From Verrucomicrobiota bacterium (lineage in GTDB: Bacteria; Verrucomicrobiota; Verrucomicrobiia; Opitutales; Opitutaceae), in NCBI GenBank assembly GCA_031387725.1, contig JANNDM010000013.1, positions 7,134 to 71,133 of the forward strand: 64,000 bases of DNA, read 5' to 3'. Positions 49,800 to 61,801 of this stretch are shown one piece after another. The position numbers and the translations under genes were made by a program. Every line of letters starts with the position of its first letter. The first letter of the stretch is position 1. The notes beneath the pieces were generated by a model. The model ran no database searches. It saw only the letters and a list, made by a program, of their open reading frames with translations, and was not told the origin of the DNA.

Positions 49800-50531
49800 T
49801 CAGCCCTTCACGGTCATCTTGTTGGTGACGGAATTCACGCCGCGGACGTCCTTGGCGAGTTTGGTGACGAGGGATTTCTCGGCGTCGGAGGCGGCCTCAC
49901 CGGTGACGAGGACCACGCCGTCGGATGTGACAATCTTGGTCTTGAGGGCGCTGGTGGACTTGTGGGTGAGCAGGGCAAACTTGACCTGGCTGGTGATGGA
50001 GGCGTCATCGATCTTCTCGCCCAGGGTGGGCTTGTCGGTGACGACGATGTCATTCTGCACGCTTTTCACGCCGTCGATGTCCTTGGCGTAGATGGCGGTC
50101 AGTTCCTTCTGCGCGAGATTGTCCGCGGTGCCGCTCAAGGTGACATGGGCATCCTTGACCTCGACCTTGGTCGTGGCGGCGCTGACATTGCCCTTCACGA
50201 GCAGGCGTCCACGGATCTTGAAGGCCATCCAGCCGTCGGACTTCTCGGGATAGGCCGGATCGACCTTGATCTCGTTGTTGATGCGGATGACCCCCGGGAG
50301 GTTTTCCACGGTGTCGGCGGCGAGGTCCCGGTCGGCTTTGTCCTGGACCGTGCCGGTGAGGGTGACGACGCCGTCATCGGCCTTCACCTTCACATGATCC
50401 TCAAGGACGGTGCGGTAATTGTAGGAAGCCTTGGCGGCGTCCTCGATCTTGCGATCGGTGGCATGGGAAGCGAACAGCGCGAGCGGGCTGGCGATAAGTA
50501 ACAGCAGGGCGGATAGATTTTTGTTTTTCAT
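49800..50531 (-). CDS. OsmY-like protein with three BON domains
   Basis: Start MKNKNL; signal peptide; GVVTLTGTV, SDGWMAFKIRGRL, IDDASITSQVKFAL. Confidence 0.85.
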   Translation of the reverse strand: MKNKNLSALLLLIASPLALFASHATDRKIEDAAKASYNYRTVLEDHVKVKADDGVVTLTGTVQDKADRDLAADTVENLPGVIRINNEIKVDPAYPEKSDGWMAFKIRGRLLVKGNVSAATTKVEVKDAHVTLSGTADNLAQKELTAIYAKDIDGVKSVQNDIVVTDKPTLGEKIDDASITSQVKFALLTHKSTSALKTKIVTSDGVVLVTGEAASDAEKSLVTKLAKDVRGVNSVTNKMTVKG

Positions 50532-50545
50532 GGATTGAGTGACAG

Positions 50546-50589
50546 ACCATACGTGATGTTGTCCGCCGTTGATATGGGGCATTGCCCAC
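50546..50589 (-). promoter_or_regulatory. RCCCCAT-N22-(-10) promoter of BON-DUF3185-DUF1328-DUF883-YqjE-YqjK-cls operon
   Basis: GTGGGCAATGCCCCAT (50574-50589), 22 nt, TATGGT (50546-50551). Confidence 0.65.
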
Positions 50590-50666
50590 CCCCGCCGGTG
50601 ACGGCGGGGTGAGCCGTCGCACCGGCGGGGCGGTAAACGGAAAACCCCCGCCGGTGAAGGCGGGGG
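50590..50666 (-). terminator. Terminator of the autotransporter gene plus a second related hairpin
   Basis: CCCCCGCC-GGTGAA-GGCGGGGG (50645-50666) followed by TTTT on the minus strand. Second hairpin CCCCGCCGGTG..CACCGGCGGGG (50590-50630) shares the same core sequence. Confidence 0.6.
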
Positions 50667-50694: not shown

Positions 50695-53637
50695 TTAGAA
50701 GATGACCGATAGACCGATGTTCCATTCATCGAGCACGCGGGTCGTGCCACCGCTCTGGGTGATCACGTTGGTATAGAGCAGGGCGCTGGGTCCGAGCACG
50801 AGGTCGAGGCCGGCGCTGTAGAGCGCGGAGTCGCGCGGGGCCCGGTGGGTCCTGACGGAGTAGCTGGTGTTGCCGAACGAGGCGCCGATGCGGCGGGTGC
50901 TGTTGTAGAACTCATGGAGCCAGGCGGCGCGGACGTGCGGTTGGAACATGCCGAGCTTCACGCGAGCCTCTGCTCCGAGCTGCGAGCGCAGGGAGGTGGC
51001 GCTCTGGCGGCCGACATTGGCGGAGAACGCTCCGGCGCCTTGCTCGGTGAAGCCGTTGGCCGACCAGCGGCTGTAGAGCAGCCCGCCAAAGGGCGATACG
51101 GTTACCACGCCGGCCTTCATGTGCTGCCCGACGGTGATCCCGGTGGTCCACTGGTGGCCGCGGGTGGACGAGGTGGCGATGGCGGAGGTGCCCGGGAACA
51201 CGATGGGGCGCGTGGACTCGTAGCGGTTGAAGCCGTAGGCGAGCATCGCCTCCGCAAACATTGGACCCTTGGCCGAGCCGGCGCGCAGGCCAAAGGTCTG
51301 GTCCTTCACGGTCGTCTGGCTGCCGGCCGAACCAAGGCCGGAGGTTGTCCGACCGAAGGTAAAGAAGGCCCCGACGGTGGTGTCCGCGCTGATGGCGTGG
51401 TTTCCGCCGACCAGGCCGTAGTTGCTGGTGTAGCGGCTCGAACCGACATCCGCATCGGACCGGGACCGGCCGTGGCGTTTGCCGGCCTCGAAGTAGTATT
51501 CGTCATGTCCGGTGACCGCGCGGTCATCGCGCAGGAGGCGGTCGGCGAGGGAGGTCGAGTGCGCGAAGGCGAAGTCAGACCAGATTTGGTAGCCCTGGGG
51601 CGAAATGGCGTTGAGCGAGCTCGGGAACTGGCTGGCGAGGGGCAGGGTGTTGAGGGCCGCGGTCTGGGTCGGGGTGGCCTGCGCGGCGGCGCCGACGGCC
51701 GCTTGGTTGGGCGTCGTGGCGAAGCCGGCGAAGGGCAGCTGCGTGAAGACGAGGGTCGCACTGGTCGGGGCATACACCACGCTGACCGCGGTGGCGGCGC
51801 TGGGGGTGGCGCCGGTCAGGGTGCCGAAGGTGCCGCTGACACTGCTGGCCGTGAGGAAGGTGAAGGACTGTCCCAGCGGATTGAAGCCACCGAGGATGGA
51901 ATATTGCAAGGTGCCGGCAAGCGCGGCCGTGCCGGTCATGATGAGCCGGTCGAACGACGCGGCCGAGGCGATCTCAATGAGGAGGAGACCGGTGGAACCT
52001 TGCGTGTAGTTGCCCGTGACATTGATCGTGCCGGGCGAGGTGCCGGGGCTGACCGTGCCGTTGTTGGTGAGGAGGCCGATGACGGTGCCGGTGCCGCCGA
52101 GAGTGGCGCCGGGGGAGACGGTGGTCGCGCCGACGCCGTTGCTGAAGAAGAACGAGCCGGCCTGGACATCAATCGGTGACGTGGTCGCGGTGGTCAGGGT
52201 GAGCGTGCCCGTGCCGGTTTTCTGGACCCGGCCGCCGCCGGTGATGGCGCCGCCGAACGTGCCACTGGCGCCCTGGTTGAAGACCAGCGTGGCGACGGGG
52301 AGGATGGCGATGGGCCCGTTGGCCGGCAGGGAGGCGGTGCTGGCGATCAGCGTGCCGGAACTCACGTTGGTGCCACCCGTGTAGGTGTTGGCGCCGGTGA
52401 GGGTGGTCGTGCCGACGCCCTGCTTGGCGACCGTGCCGTTGCCGGAAATCACGCCGCCGAACGAGCCGGTCAACGGCTGGTTGAGGGTCAGGAGGCTCGA
52501 GTTGAGGGTGATGGGCCCGTTCACGGGCAGGGTCTGGCTGGTGGCAATGAGCGCACCGTTGTTCACAATGGTGCCGCCGGTGTAAGTGTTGCCGGTGCCG
52601 GTCATGGTCACGGTGGCCGTGTTGATCGTCAGAGAGGCCGGGGCCGACCCGTTCGAGGAATTGCCATCAAGGGTCAGAGTCGTGGTGGGGAGGCTCGTGC
52701 CCGGGACCAGGACCACGCCGGAGGTTCCCGTCACAAAGAGGCCGGTCGAGCTGAGAATGACGTTGCCGGTGAACACCGGGGCCGGCGGCGGCGGCGGCGG
52801 CGGCGGGATCGGCACCAGCTGGCCAAGGCCGTTATACATCAAACCGCCATCGAAGTCGCCGCCACCGGGACCGCCCAAGGGGTTGAATCCGCCGGGGGCC
52901 GGGCCGGCGAACGTGACGGCGGCCCCCGCCAAGGCTCGAACGCCGCCACCGGCCAGAGTGTTGGTGCTGCCGGTAAAGTTGATAGAGGTGCCCGCCATGT
53001 AATTGCCCAGGACCGTATTGGTGTCGCCGATCGTGATGCCCGCCGCGGCGTTCCAGAAGAGGCCGTTATCAGAGCCGCCATTGGTGCCGAGGTTGATGAA
53101 GGTGACCGTCGAATTCGCGGCGGTGGTGAGGCTGGTGCCGATATTAAAAACCCAGGCCACGCCGTTCTGAAAATTGGCGTCGAGGACGAGCGCCCCGGTC
53201 TGTTGCGCGGCGACGCCAAACGAATAAACCCCCGCTTGCAGCGGGGCCAAAGTCCCGAGATCCTGACCGGACAAAAGGTTGGCCGGGGCGCTGATCGGCA
53301 AGGCGAACAGGGCATTCCGGGCCGTGATGAGATCCAGCCCCGCCTGGCCGGTGGCGCCGCCGGTGGCGACGATCGCCGCCGGGCCGGCCGTAAGCGTCGT
53401 GCCAGAAACCGTCCCATTGGCCGGAAAGCCGACGATGTTGGTGGTGGCGGCGCTGGAGAGACCGACGTTGCCGTTAACGATCGGATTGGGACCAGGTGCG
53501 GCGATGGTGATGCCGGTGCCGCCGAGCAGCGCGTAGTTACTCGCGGTAAGCAAAACTTGGGCGGAGCCGGACACCGCGGCGAAAAGCAGCCCGGCAACAG
53601 CCAGCACCGGCAAGGGGATAAGATTATTAATTTTCAT
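50695..53637 (-). CDS. Autotransporter with N-terminal ice-binding-like (DUF3494) domain, poly-Pro linker and passenger repeats
   Basis: Start MKINNL; SNYALLGGTGIT..GNVGLS..GVYSF..LVLDA..WVFNIGTSLTTA..LFW (DUF3494-like); PPPPPPPP; GANTYTGGT repeats; barrel RAAWLHEF..GLSVIF. Confidence 0.82.
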   Translation of the reverse strand: MKINNLIPLPVLAVAGLLFAAVSGSAQVLLTASNYALLGGTGITIAAPGPNPIVNGNVGLSSAATTNIVGFPANGTVSGTTLTAGPAAIVATGGATGQAGLDLITARNALFALPISAPANLLSGQDLGTLAPLQAGVYSFGVAAQQTGALVLDANFQNGVAWVFNIGTSLTTAANSTVTFINLGTNGGSDNGLFWNAAAGITIGDTNTVLGNYMAGTSINFTGSTNTLAGGGVRALAGAAVTFAGPAPGGFNPLGGPGGGDFDGGLMYNGLGQLVPIPPPPPPPPAPVFTGNVILSSTGLFVTGTSGVVLVPGTSLPTTTLTLDGNSSNGSAPASLTINTATVTMTGTGNTYTGGTIVNNGALIATSQTLPVNGPITLNSSLLTLNQPLTGSFGGVISGNGTVAKQGVGTTTLTGANTYTGGTNVSSGTLIASTASLPANGPIAILPVATLVFNQGASGTFGGAITGGGRVQKTGTGTLTLTTATTSPIDVQAGSFFFSNGVGATTVSPGATLGGTGTVIGLLTNNGTVSPGTSPGTINVTGNYTQGSTGLLLIEIASAASFDRLIMTGTAALAGTLQYSILGGFNPLGQSFTFLTASSVSGTFGTLTGATPSAATAVSVVYAPTSATLVFTQLPFAGFATTPNQAAVGAAAQATPTQTAALNTLPLASQFPSSLNAISPQGYQIWSDFAFAHSTSLADRLLRDDRAVTGHDEYYFEAGKRHGRSRSDADVGSSRYTSNYGLVGGNHAISADTTVGAFFTFGRTTSGLGSAGSQTTVKDQTFGLRAGSAKGPMFAEAMLAYGFNRYESTRPIVFPGTSAIATSSTRGHQWTTGITVGQHMKAGVVTVSPFGGLLYSRWSANGFTEQGAGAFSANVGRQSATSLRSQLGAEARVKLGMFQPHVRAAWLHEFYNSTRRIGASFGNTSYSVRTHRAPRDSALYSAGLDLVLGPSALLYTNVITQSGGTTRVLDEWNIGLSVIF

Positions 53638-53653
53638 AGTAGGAGGTGGGGGG

Positions 53654-53697
53654 AGAATACGTGCCATGGCCTCCGGCCGATATGGGGCAAAACCCTC
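53654..53697 (-). promoter_or_regulatory. RCCCCAT-N22-(-10) promoter of the autotransporter
   Basis: GAGGGTTTTGCCCCAT (53682-53697), 22 nt, TATTCT (53654-53659). Extra GCGGGAAAAATCCCCG further upstream. Confidence 0.65.
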
Positions 53698-53794
53698 CCA
53701 TCCCAACCGGCCCCGACCGGCACCGGAATTTTCTTGCGGCGGTTGCCGAAGGGTGAACCGGGGATTTTTCCCGCAGAGTTTCCCCACTGACGGA

Positions 53795-54517
53795 CTAGCG
53801 GTGAGGCTTGGCGGTCGGCGGCCCCGGGGGGTGGTCTGGGATTTGAAAGGCCGGCTCATGCTGCCAGGCGTCCGCGCCCGCCGCGACGGGCCGGGCGGGC
53901 AGATCCGCTCTTTGCGCCCTGACGACGGCGGGATCAATTTTCAGTTCCCGATTGCGCCCGGCCACCATTGCGGGGTCCAGCTGCCCGTCGGCCGTGAAGC
54001 CCATCATCAGCTGCGGCAGGCCGAGCGGGATTTCGTCGCCGCGGTCCACCTGCCACAACGTCCAGGTTTTCCCGTAGGTGGTGACGAACATTTTCATCAG
54101 GTTCATTTCCTCCGCGGAGGAAAGGCCGGTTGCCGTCAGGAGGCCGGACATAACTTCGTAGCGGTGGCTGTGCCACAACTGTTTTTCCGCCCCGGGCAAT
54201 TGGTTGAACCGCTCCTCGCTGATGATGTATTCGACCCCGATCAGGCGGGCGTCGGGCCGGTCCGAATCGTAGACGACACATTGCATGACACCGGTGGCGG
54301 CGTGGGAGCAGTAATGCTCGACTCGCACCGCCCGCTTCATGTCGCCACTATAGAAATGGAACCCTCCCAGGTGCGCGTGAATGGAACCGAGGGGTCCGGT
54401 CGCGGCCAGCGGGGTGGTCCCGGGATCGGGGGTGACATGACCGCCGGGCGGGGTTTGCGCGCCCAGTGAGAGGGAGAGCAATCCTGCGCCGAGCAGGCTT
54501 TTCAGAAACGTGGTCAT
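53795..54517 (-). CDS. OBAP/DUF1264 family protein, secreted
   Basis: Signal peptide; HYCSH, QCVVYDSD, RLIGVEYIISE, WHSHRYEV, TYGKTW. Confidence 0.82.
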   Translation of the reverse strand: MTTFLKSLLGAGLLSLSLGAQTPPGGHVTPDPGTTPLAATGPLGSIHAHLGGFHFYSGDMKRAVRVEHYCSHAATGVMQCVVYDSDRPDARLIGVEYIISEERFNQLPGAEKQLWHSHRYEVMSGLLTATGLSSAEEMNLMKMFVTTYGKTWTLWQVDRGDEIPLGLPQLMMGFTADGQLDPAMVAGRNRELKIDPAVVRAQRADLPARPVAAGADAWQHEPAFQIPDHPPGPPTAKPHR

Positions 54518-54623
54518 GAGGAGATTGTTATCGGGAGGTGAGGTGATCAGAGCGATGACCCGACCGCCAACCTCATGACCGCGGGCGGCGACCAGGGTTC
54601 AGCCCAATGAGTGAATGCCTGCA

Positions 54624-54667
54624 CCCTTGAACACCCCATAGCCGGACAACGGCACACCCTGCAATCT
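54624..54667 (+). promoter_or_regulatory. RCCCCAT-N22-(-10) promoter of the diheme cytochrome
   Basis: ACCCCAT (CCCCAT 54634-54639), 22 nt, CAATCT (54662-54667), ATG 6 nt later. Upstream CAGGGTTCAGCCCAAT at 54593-54608. Confidence 0.5.
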
Positions 54668-54673
54668 TGGGGC

Positions 54674-56080
54674 ATGTCTCGCTTCATTGCCCCGCCCGTG
54701 GTTTGCCTCTTGGCTTTGTTGCTCCCGGCCGAGCCTGGCCTGCACGCTCAGCCGGCAGCCGACCCGGCGCTGCCGGCCGCTAGTTACATGACCGTCAACA
54801 GCGCCGAGCCGCTCGCTGTCGTCCGGCAACGCATGGAGCAGGCGAAGCCGGCGATCATGCAGGCGCACCGGGAATTTCTGGCGGAGCGCTATGACCTGGC
54901 CGACCGGCCGGTGGCCGGCGTGACGATGTCCCGCGGCAAGGCCGTGCAGCAGGGCGTTCGCGCCCGGCTCAAGCCGGGCATCAGCTGGGAGATGCTGGCG
55001 GCCTTGTCTTCCGACGAGATCCGGACGCGGGATCTTTGGCCGGCCGGGTTCCAGCCCCTGCCACACCCCAATCACGCGGAAGGCGGCATGGTGTTTCCAC
55101 AGTTTGTCCTCGATGAACTCAAACGACAGGAGCAGCGCGACCTGACGCGGTTCGATCTCGATTATGACCTGCCGGATCATTTTTTGCCGGAGTTTCCCGG
55201 GGCCATCTTCCTGACCACGCGCCCCGACCTCGGCGACGTGTCGCAGGGCCGGGTCGTGACCCTCGACAATTACTTCGGGCTCTTCAACGGCGTCCTGAAT
55301 CCCAAGCAGCTCGAGGGCCTGCGGCTGCTGCTCACGCCCTTTCCGCAGCAGCAGTTCAACAGCACGGACGACCGTCGCTCCGCCCGCGCCAGCCGCGGCG
55401 TCGCCTGCCTCGACTGCCACACCAACGGCCACACCAACGCCGGGACCCACCTTGCGGGCGACGCCCGGCCGCAGGCGTTCCGGCATCGAATCGACACACC
55501 CAGTCTGCGCGGGGTGAACATCCAGCAGCTCTTCGGCTCGCAGCGCGCGCTGAAGAGCGTGGAGGACTTCACGGAGTTTGAGCAGCGCGGCGCCTATTTC
55601 GACGGCGACACCGTGATCGCCGTGAAGAAGGGCGCCAACGTCCTCGACCGCGGCAGCCAGGTGCACGCGATGGCCGAGATGCAGGCGTTGTTCGATTTCC
55701 CCCCGGCGCCGAAGCTGAATGTATTCGGCAAACTGGATCCCGCCCGGGCCACGCCGCCCGAACTGCGCGGGCAGGAATTGTTTTTCGGCAAGGCCCGGTG
55801 CGTCTCCTGCCATGTGCCGCCTTACTACACGGACAATTCCATGCACGACCTGCAAACCGGCCGCTTTTTCGCCCCAAGGATGATCCGCGGCGCCAGGTTG
55901 ACGGCCGACGGCCCGATCAAGACCTTCCCTTTGCGCGGCCTCAAGGAGTCGCCGCCCTATCTCCACGACGGGCGGCTGCTCACGCTCGCCGACACCATTG
56001 AATTCTTCAACCTGATCCTGGGGACGCGGCTCACGATGGAAGAGAAAGCGGAGCTGGAGGCGTTTCTCCGCGTGCTCTGA
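54674..56080 (+). CDS. Diheme cytochrome c, bCcP/MauG superfamily
   Basis: Signal peptide; CLDCH and CVSCH; DTPSLRG; KTFPLRGL..PPYLHDG. Confidence 0.82.
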   Translation: MSRFIAPPVVCLLALLLPAEPGLHAQPAADPALPAASYMTVNSAEPLAVVRQRMEQAKPAIMQAHREFLAERYDLADRPVAGVTMSRGKAVQQGVRARLKPGISWEMLAALSSDEIRTRDLWPAGFQPLPHPNHAEGGMVFPQFVLDELKRQEQRDLTRFDLDYDLPDHFLPEFPGAIFLTTRPDLGDVSQGRVVTLDNYFGLFNGVLNPKQLEGLRLLLTPFPQQQFNSTDDRRSARASRGVACLDCHTNGHTNAGTHLAGDARPQAFRHRIDTPSLRGVNIQQLFGSQRALKSVEDFTEFEQRGAYFDGDTVIAVKKGANVLDRGSQVHAMAEMQALFDFPPAPKLNVFGKLDPARATPPELRGQELFFGKARCVSCHVPPYYTDNSMHDLQTGRFFAPRMIRGARLTADGPIKTFPLRGLKESPPYLHDGRLLTLADTIEFFNLILGTRLTMEEKAELEAFLRVL

Positions 56081-56137: not shown

Positions 56138-56181
56138 ACCCACAACACCCCATTGAGGCCGCCGCCCGGGTCCTCTATCAT
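56138..56181 (+). promoter_or_regulatory. RCCCCAT-N22-(-10) promoter of lipoprotein/outer-membrane pair
   Basis: ACCCACAACACCCCAT (56138-56153), 22 nt, TATCAT (56176-56181). Confidence 0.6.
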
Positions 56182-61452: not shown

Positions 61453-61496
61453 AATGTAAGCGAAAGGGCGCACAGGCAATATGGGGTGTAACCCGC
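61453..61496 (-). promoter_or_regulatory. RCCCCAT-N22-(-10) promoter of BON-DUF2934-PRC operon
   Basis: GCGGGTTACACCCCAT (61481-61496), 22 nt, TACATT (61453-61458). Confidence 0.65.
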
Positions 61497-61565: not shown

Positions 61566-61639
61566 GCGGGAGCCCACCCATCAGAGTTTCGAGTGTGGGT
61601 GAATGCCCCATGGGAACGGTTGCCGCAGCATGCTACCTT
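61566..61639 (+). promoter_or_regulatory. RCCCCAT-N22-(-10) promoter of DUF3309 gene with tandem upstream site
   Basis: GCGGGAGCCCACCCAT (61566-61581); TGGGTGAATGCCCCAT (61596-61611), 22 nt, TACCTT (61634-61639), ATG 6 nt later. Confidence 0.62.
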
Positions 61640-61645
61640 GCGGCC

Positions 61646-61801
61646 ATGAATCCACTCCTTCTCATCATTGTCCTGTTGCTATTGTTTGGTGGCGGCGGGT
61701 TCTACGTAGGCGGTCCTGCGTATGGCGGCGGCGGGCTGGGCCTGATCGTCCTGATCTGTCTCGTCGTCTATCTGATGGGCGGCATGCGCCCGAAAAAATG
61801 A
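61646..61801 (+). CDS. DUF3309-like small membrane protein
   Basis: MNPLLLIIVLLLLFGGGGFY..GGGGLGLIVLICLVVYLMG. Confidence 0.75.
   Translation: MNPLLLIIVLLLLFGGGGFYVGGPAYGGGGLGLIVLICLVVYLMGGMRPKK

Follow-up and report, generated by a model that had tools for sequence, protein, structure and literature searches.

Ice-binding proteins (IBPs) from the DUF3494 family (PF11999) with solved structures, such as AnpIBP (7BWX), EfcIBP (6EIO), IBPv (5UYT), FfIBP (4NU2), ColAFP (3WP9), LeIBP (3UYU), and TisAFP (3VN3), share a discontinuous β-solenoid braced by a long α-helix and are free, secreted proteins made of single or double domains. A domain of the same family and fold, only 20–27% identical to these proteins, is encoded in a 64,000-nucleotide stretch of DNA from a Verrucomicrobiota bacterium of the Opitutaceae (contig JANNDM010000013.1; the whole stretch is called the window below). 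Here, the domain would be the functional tip of a 980-amino acid protein, the product of an intact gene at 50695..53637 on the minus strand, which its sequence identifies as a classical type Va autotransporter. Profile matches and structure models allow the protein to be described, with high confidence, as a regulated DUF3494 binding module displayed on a stalk from the outer membrane. That this display answers to stress and that its ligand is ice is a tentative reading, which we put somewhat below an even chance.

To our knowledge, the only established bacterial ice adhesin is MpIBP, and SfIBP_1 is the proposed candidate with a DUF3494 domain. The latter is said to carry tandem Ig-like β-sandwich extenders and a lipoprotein-type N-terminal anchor, whereas in the protein considered here the extension is a PATR β-helix and the anchor a C-terminal type Va barrel. 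In what is cited of its description (Vance et al., 2018, in PMC11645318), SfIBP_1 from Shewanella frigidimarina (6BG8) combines DUF3494 with extender domains and is proposed to be a surface-held ice adhesin; the present domain matches it in Foldseek with an E-value of 5.7e-08. MpIBP (PMC5550230), a 1.5-MDa ice adhesin of the RTX type found in Marinomonas primoryensis, likewise has an ice-binding β-solenoid at the far end of a long stalk anchored in the outer membrane. However, its ice-binding domain is a Ca2+-dependent RTX-like solenoid unrelated to DUF3494, and MpIBP differs further in its type I secretion, its far larger size, and its extra sugar- and peptide-binding domains. No RTX or type I secretion system family was found in the Pfam and NCBIfam scans of the present protein, and the likeness to MpIBP-type adhesins appears to be functional only.

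Regarding the anchor, the autotransporters EstA (3KVN), NalP (1UYN), EspP (2QOM), AIDA-I (4MEE), and BrkA (3QQ2) share with this protein the PF03797 barrel, a pre-barrel helix, the C-terminal Phe, PATR, and a signal peptide, but they lack DUF3494, their passengers being esterases, proteases, or adhesins of Proteobacteria. The combination of both families has been tabulated as pfam11999_pfam03797 in a survey of metagenomes from the Central Arctic Ocean (Winder et al., 2023; PMC9957290). There, it is labeled 'Autotransporter beta-domain - secretion', makes up only 0.30% of IBP abundance, and is given without taxon, structure, regulation, or function, whereas the carriers described here are Opitutaceae of soil, freshwater, and gut. 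Both domain families being known, and their combination being present in databases and in this one survey table, the architecture is not categorically new. What is new is its description at family level in the Opitutaceae, the mapping of a face resembling an ice-binding site, and the placing of all the DUF3494 genes under one promoter of the extracytoplasmic function (ECF) stress type. No paper on a characterized DUF3494 autotransporter was found in the literature searched. This agrees with the first-pass annotation, made from the letters of the window alone, whose author knew of no characterized example in the Verrucomicrobiota, yet the architecture is widespread in the Opitutaceae entries of databases.

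The minus-strand open reading frame extends over 50695..53937. Its real start is assigned to position 53637 (MKINN), since this is where homologues start, sharing the signal peptide (..SGSAQ), and since a promoter-like -10 box separates the ATG at 53637 from the in-frame ATG upstream of it. All features of the protein are given on the minus strand. A Sec signal peptide (residues 1-26, MKINNLIPLPVLAVAGLLFAAVSGSAQ; 53560..53637) was assigned by inspection from K2, a hydrophobic core, and the SGSAQ end; its n, h, and c regions are kept in homologues. It is followed by the DUF3494 or IBP-1 fold domain (residues 27-276; 52810..53559), by a flexible Pro-rich linker (residues 277-290; 52768..52809), and by a passenger β-helix stalk with PATR repeats (residues 291-633; 51739..52767). 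The stalk is recognized in Pfam by PF12951 (36.6 bits) in two stretches, GTGNTYTGGT and GANTYTGGT, with which the NCBIfam autotransporter repeat TIGR02601 (34.8 bits) agrees. A helical linker region (residues 636-701; 51535..51732), seen by DSSP in the full-length model, leads to the autotransporter β-barrel (residues 713-980; 50698..51501), which ends in ..GLSVIF with a terminal Phe ahead of the stop codon at 50695-50697 and is matched by PF03797 at 144.2 bits over residues 721-957.

The full-length AlphaFold2 (AF2) model, built on an alignment of 40 sequences (A2), has a mean predicted local distance difference test score (pLDDT) of 85.3. In this model, the signal peptide is disordered (pLDDT < 50), residues 280-286 of the Pro hinge are of low confidence (pLDDT 47), residues 291-633 form a regular β-solenoid of short strands (pLDDT > 90), and the barrel occupies residues 713-979. 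The last helix of the 636-701 region (residues 680-701) is predicted directly ahead of the barrel, the first strand of which begins at residue 713, as is typical of type Va autotransporters. Foldseek searches with the C-terminal translocator unit retrieved EstA (3kvn; 4e-14) and NalP (template modeling, TM, score 0.84), as well as AaaA, EspP, Hbp, AIDA-I, and BrkA. The signal peptide, the GANTYTGGT repeats, and the Phe-terminated barrel noticed in the first-pass annotation are thus all recovered, and profile and fold evidence alike speak for its proposal of surface display on a type V autotransporter. The poly-Pro run that it described is present as well (P278-P285). As a defining feature of the family it was rejected, since at least five consecutive Pro residues are found in only 6 of the 91 homologues inspected; the family consensus at this site is still Pro-rich, with a linker of varying length and composition.

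Many type Va passengers are freed by auto- or trans-proteolysis, as in the SPATEs and NalP, and a protease could plausibly reach the protein at its Pro-rich hinge (residues 277-290). The passenger could accordingly be cleaved after export, the DUF3494 domain then being a secreted ice-binding or antifreeze protein, like the best-characterized bacterial DUF3494 proteins, and the autotransporter only a secretion device. However, Pfam and NCBIfam searches of the protein identified neither a SPATE-type intrabarrel cleavage motif nor a protease domain, and a protein meant for secretion alone would have no use for the long, conserved PATR stalk. Cleavage for release is regarded as very improbable.

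Assignment of the tip domain is firmly supported. The first-pass annotation had proposed a search with PF11999 and PF03797, the lack of a PF11999 match being taken as contrary to its reading; both profiles matched. PF11999 (Ice_binding) scored 83.9 bits (cut-off 28.7; E 1.6e-23) over residues 38-243, which align with positions 2-202 of the 208-position profile, and 88.8 bits in a genome-wide scan. A phmmer search of the whole protein against the PDB returned no relative, after which a family profile was needed; it was built from 27 representatives of residues 27-276 (alignment A1). Run against PDB sequences, this profile matched 18 solved DUF3494 IBPs over their full length, best of all AnpIBP (7bwx; 9e-25), EfcIBP (6eio; 1e-22), and IBPv (5uyt; 3e-22), and also FfIBP, LeIBP, TisAFP, SfIBP_1, and the Cryosericum proteins. 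With the same alignment, AF2 gave a model of pLDDT 89.5 and predicted TM score (pTM) 0.90, in which the long helix typical of the fold lies at residues 94-111 (domain residues 68-85). All 31 Foldseek matches in the PDB with E ≤ 0.001 were DUF3494 IBPs (target-normalized TM scores 0.66-0.83). By profile and by model, membership of the DUF3494 family and the IBP-1 fold can be taken as established, in line with the DUF3494-like β-solenoid of the first-pass annotation, and the fold matches imply a triangular cross-section and a discontinuous solenoid. Two features set the domain apart from the solved DUF3494 proteins: a family-conserved four-residue insertion relative to canonical IBPs at residues 181-196 (NLGxNGGxDxGLFWN; window about 53050-53097, minus strand) and a conserved Gly/Asp-rich C-terminal extension past the solenoid at residues 255-266 (LGGPGGGDxDGGL; window about 52840-52875, minus strand). 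Their composition suggests a metal-binding or capping loop.

The gene has a promoter-like motif of its own, GCCCCAT (53688-53682)-N22-TATTCT (53659-53654), with GGGTTT ahead of it, located at 53654..53688 on the minus strand, 16 nt 5' of the ATG. It also has an intrinsic terminator-like hairpin of eight G-C pairs with a T tail (CCCCCGCC-ttcacc-GGCGGGGG, then TTTTCCGTTT; 50645..50666, minus strand). A second copy of the motif, GCCCCAT-N22-TATGGT (50546..50580, minus strand), stands 14 nt 5' of the downstream BON gene, and both genes carry GCCCCATATC-N15-CACGTAT. A consensus scan of the region gave no sigma-70 promoter, which argues that the motif is not a housekeeping one. Across the genome, RCCCCAT-N22-TAnnnT is found 18 times at a spacing of 22, vs. 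0-5 times at other spacings (14-29); when the R is relaxed, 24 matches at a spacing of 22 compare with 1-6 elsewhere. The motif is often preceded by GGGTTA. In the window, copies are located at 50546-50580 (minus), 53654-53688 (minus), 56147-56181 (plus), 61453-61487 (minus), and 61605-61639 (plus). An alternative pattern, CCCCAT-N16-19-CACGTA, was rejected as over-fitted to two sites, its three genome matches all lying in the window.

Some further features of these sites can be mentioned. The motif contains a short inverted repeat, GGGT-N3-ACCC, to which a regulator could bind. In many members of the putative regulon, as at window 50546-50531 and 61634-61646, the start codon comes only 6-16 nt past the -10 box and no Shine-Dalgarno sequence is present (the autotransporter, for instance, has CCTCCT ahead of its ATG), so that their transcripts would be leaderless or nearly so.

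The genes directly 3' of motif copies comprise three with BON and one with PRC+BON, those for CsbD, a PLDc_N mini-protein, several lipoproteins, and this autotransporter, together with one for a small membrane protein that is rich in Gly and matches no Pfam family, called DUF3309 in the first-pass annotation. Genes for DUF883, DUF1328, and DUF3185 proteins are counted in the same regulon. In Proteobacteria, BON/OsmY-like, CsbD, PRC-BON, and DUF883/DUF1328/DUF3185 genes are typical of osmotic stress, desiccation, or stationary phase. The motif is carried by each of the three DUF3494 genes in the genome, in one case with a single mismatch. Besides the autotransporter gene, these are a gene for a 355-amino acid paralogue (C38:2653-3204, minus strand) with the exact motif, a 278-nt leader, and a C-terminal post-COAP-1 domain (NF041523, 70.9 bits), and a third gene (C85:4001-4825, plus strand) with the mismatched ACCCTAT-N22-TAGACT, the product of which has a PEP-CTERM-like tail (IPEP, a transmembrane segment, and RR). 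Synteny and motif statistics agree with the earlier suggestion of a CCCCAT promoter common to stress-type genes.

A candidate reader of the motif is an ECF-type sigma factor (C110:15305-16036; TIGR02937 at 75.9 bits, cut-off 42.9), whose gene has TCCCCAT-N22-TAGTCT six nt ahead of its own ATG; the motif is also found upstream of its orthologue in an Oleiharenicola metagenome-assembled genome (MAG), hence in two genomes in all. Since a sigma gene preceded by its own motif is typical of autoregulated ECF sigma factors, this protein is the likely reader. The fixed-spacing motif, standing ahead of both the autotransporter and the sigma gene, suggests an autoregulated ECF general-stress-like regulon in the Opitutaceae; no description of such a regulon was found in the literature searched. 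As sequence evidence, the autotransporter's own stress-type promoter and terminator are well supported, while sigma dependence and the nature of the inducing stress are proposed from the motif and the company it keeps. An argument from co-distribution of this sigma factor with DUF3494 was tried and rejected, as the two showed no clear association: roughly 35-40 of 61 family genomes have an orthologue (about 53-66% identity) vs. 13 of 61 for DUF3494, and 8 of the 13 carriers have one.

The link between motif and DUF3494 extends to other species. Among 41 loci with usable upstream DNA, orthologues or paralogues of the DUF3494 gene in other species, the exact CCCCAT-N22-TAnnnT lies no more than 110 nt from the start in 19, and a relaxed form in five more (24/41). 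It is exact upstream of the orthologue in Geminisphaera colitermitum TAV2, whereas Opitutus sp. GAS368 and two others have a degenerate CCCC core, with GGGTTAG, the spacing, and TAnnnT retained. Genome-wide enrichment of the motif is strong in two other DUF3494 carriers (G029, 20 matches vs. 0 in the control; G004, 19 vs. 7). A genome of the same genus as the window (G043, 99% complete) has no PF11999 gene, three matches vs. four in the control, and an ECF sigma paralogue only 48% identical. A fourth genome (G048) shows no enrichment although it carries an orthologue with a degenerate motif. That motif enrichment tracks DUF3494 across genomes is thus suggestive only. Judging from G043, the module in its entirety may be an accessory one in this genus.

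The shared regulon bears on the possibility that DUF3494 modules make up a protective, water-ordering surface coat against desiccation or osmotic stress and bind no external solid. The three paralogues, each with a different anchor, would then all contribute, the autotransporter being one anchoring solution among them. Such a role would fit the association of the three genes with BON/OsmY-like, CsbD, PRC-BON, and DUF883/DUF1328/DUF3185 genes, and the conservation of both regulon and DUF3494 genes in ice-free habitats. Nevertheless, it has no precedent among DUF3494 proteins, and a long stalk and hinge that hold the domain far from the membrane are better suited to reaching an external surface, which makes a coat improbable.

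With regard to what such an external surface might be, one indication comes from the face of the solenoid that binds ice in a relative. In AnpIBP, the B face was identified by mutagenesis as the site of ice binding (Yamauchi et al.; PMC7277481), and this site was mapped onto the present domain through the hidden Markov model alignment of the family profile with PDB sequences. The homology-mapped face consists of β1 (T41-G-i-T-i-A), a loop (T66-N-i-V), β2 (V142-A-a-Q-q-T), β3 (T168-S-l-T-t-A), β4 (A199-G-i-T-i-G), β5 (T217-S-i-N-f-T), and β6 (A239-A-v-T-f-A). The positions predicted to point inward are I, V, L, F, or A, with the exceptions of T172 and Q146, which supports the mapped strand register. 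At outward positions, T, S, A, and G account for 81% of residues here vs. 50% over the domain as a whole. Among the 27 family representatives, these four residues reach 86% of outward positions, with 4% charged and 0.1% aromatic residues, and over 87 homologues the mean is 89%. A Thr/Ser ladder (T41, T44, T168, T171, T202, and S/T242) is almost invariant in type. Judged by its residues, the mapped face resembles an ice-binding site; such a face does not prove ice binding.

In protein searches, the combination of PF11999 with PF03797 was found in about 80 protein clusters of 46-84% identity. Those with names all come from Opitutaceae or Verrucomicrobia, namely Opitutus sp. GAS368 (76%), MAGs of Didemnitutus and Lacunisphaera, G. 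colitermitum, and Opitutaceae TAV4. These clusters are annotated merely as 'autotransporter domain-containing protein'. Among the 61 family genomes (one per genus), DUF3494 is present in 13 and the full-length autotransporter form in about five, and the genome of the same genus has neither, which together indicate a patchy accessory gene. The isolate codes of 46 related loci point to glacier-fed streams (GFS_, GL90), lakes (LacPavin, RH, ZE), groundwater, soil, pond, and soda-lake brine; habitats were read from these codes in record titles, where one code, 'ant_bin', is not interpretable. The code 'GFS' is used for glacier-fed streams elsewhere (PMC9021309). Read in this way, the codes suggest that the closest relatives are MAGs from glacier-fed streams and lakes.

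On these grounds, ice is a plausible ligand: because the domain belongs to PF11999 near proven ice binders and has a conserved, uncharged Thr/Ser/Ala face, because many relatives seem to come from cold or seasonally frozen habitats and the gene is patchy and accessory, and because it is co-regulated with osmotic or desiccation-type genes, freezing being a process that concentrates solutes. Several observations weigh against it. The B face is assigned by homology and not from model coordinates. The strict FfIBP motif T-A/G-X-T/N occurs in five copies vs. 1.8 expected, with only one of them in the B-face register, and was dropped as weak evidence for that reason. In the regulon, no specifically cold-related member was found. 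In addition, some carriers of the architecture, namely G. colitermitum TAV2 and Opitutaceae TAV4, are isolates that we take to be from termite guts. The orthologues of TAV2 (B-face T/S/A/G fraction 0.89) and TAV4, like those of MAGs coded NC_groundwater and CSBr16, retain both face and promoter, which argues that ice is not necessarily the ligand under selection. DUF3494 proteins as a whole also occur in non-freezing habitats, where their function is not known (Raymond, 2024; PMC11645318).

The termite-gut orthologue, with its conserved face and promoter, and the relatives in groundwater- and soda-lake-coded MAGs would be accounted for if the DUF3494 tip were a general adhesin or aggregation module, whose flat face binds mineral, exopolysaccharide, or cells, as in Ag43-like autoaggregation, and by which stressed or stationary-phase cells attach or clump into a protected biofilm. 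Indeed, most PATR autotransporters with a β-helix passenger are adhesins. DUF3494 proteins are also known from caves, groundwater, and hot springs, where they are possibly mineral-binding (PMC11645318), and the PEP-CTERM-like end of one paralogue is a signal linked to bacteria producing exopolysaccharide (PMC9957290). A structural parallel is offered by the choice-of-anchor A fold (pAdhesive_15, PF20597), an IBP-like three-faced β-solenoid that serves adhesion in non-icy habitats, e.g., as an underwater adhesive in the Trailins of temperate diatoms (bioRxiv 10.1101/2023.03.06.531300). However, PF20597 is a separate family in Pfam, dissimilar in sequence to PF11999, and reportedly does not have the flat, Thr-rich face predicted here. 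The present domain is a true member of PF11999, grouped at profile level with proven ice binders (9e-25) and not with the divergent PF20597; its B face is Thr-rich and uncharged, as in ice-binding sites; and its gene neighbors point to no candidate ligand other than ice. General adhesion is a serious contender that we nonetheless hold to be clearly less than evenly probable.

Returning to stress-regulated display with ice as the ligand, the following sequence of events can be proposed. Sec would export the protein, the C-terminal barrel would insert into the outer membrane, and the passenger would be threaded out. Outside the cell, it would present a PATR β-helix stalk of ~340 residues and a hinge that is flexible and rich in Pro, with the DUF3494 β-solenoid as the distal tip. 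Transcription would start from the non-sigma-70 promoter RCCCCAT-N22-TAnnnT, which is common to stress-type genes, the other DUF3494 paralogues, and the ECF sigma gene. An ECF-type sigma factor would probably read this promoter, and DUF3494 modules would reach the surface when the general-stress-like regulon fires. In the least certain step, the working surface would be the flat, uncharged, Thr/Ser/Ala/Gly-rich B face, and the most likely ligand would be ice or the ordered water layer on it. The outcome would be adhesion of the cell surface to ice and/or local inhibition of ice recrystallization during freeze-thaw, which co-occurs with osmotic stress.

The genes around the autotransporter are themselves conserved. 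Downstream lies the gene for an OsmY-like periplasmic protein with three BON domains (49800..50531, minus strand; PF04972, 147.9 bits in three stretches), and upstream that for a DUF1264 protein (53795..54517, minus strand; PF06884, 215 bits), which has the same position in Opitutus sp. GAS368. The order (DUF1264)-autotransporter-BON-DUF3185 is conserved, the autotransporter being followed by BON in Opitutus sp. GAS368 and in the Oleiharenicola MAG. Divergent from and adjoining the DUF1264 gene, a 489-amino acid protein that looks secreted is encoded at 54611-56080 of the window (plus strand); it has two CxxCH heme-binding motifs (CLDCH and CVSCH) and no Pfam family at E ≤ 0.001, and a near-motif, ACCCCAT-N22-CAATCT, overlaps its start. 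Elsewhere, a HisKA_3 histidine kinase and a NarL/GerE-type response regulator repeatedly adjoin DUF3494 genes as a pair in different genera (C85:5417-6834, minus strand, in the same genome as the window; L022:3438-5287; L002, upstream of 1501; L021:1-274).

If the domain binds ice, this architecture would be a third, mechanistically different way of holding an ice-binding fold on a cell, in a phylum and in habitats (soil, streams, and lakes) hardly studied for IBPs. The isolated 250-residue domain is an easy target for assays of ice affinity and of ice recrystallization inhibition. The more useful result may be the fixed link of all DUF3494 genes to a stress-type promoter, conserved across genera. 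As this promoter architecture is carried by cultivated strains, namely Opitutus sp. GAS368, with a degenerate CCCC core, and G. colitermitum TAV2, with the exact motif, the function of DUF3494 in non-freezing habitats is open to simple experiments. A broader proposal, which we consider rather unlikely, is that the Opitutaceae DUF3494 proteins as a class (autotransporter, PEP-CTERM-like, and post-COAP-1 forms) are the surface arm of a conserved, autoregulated ECF-sigma general-stress regulon, even where ice is never met, as in the termite-gut Geminisphaera. If this were true, surface adhesion or hydration induced by stress would be what DUF3494 generally provides in bacteria of non-icy habitats, with ice binding as a special case, and the Opitutaceae would offer a tractable, cultivable model for DUF3494 function outside the cryosphere.

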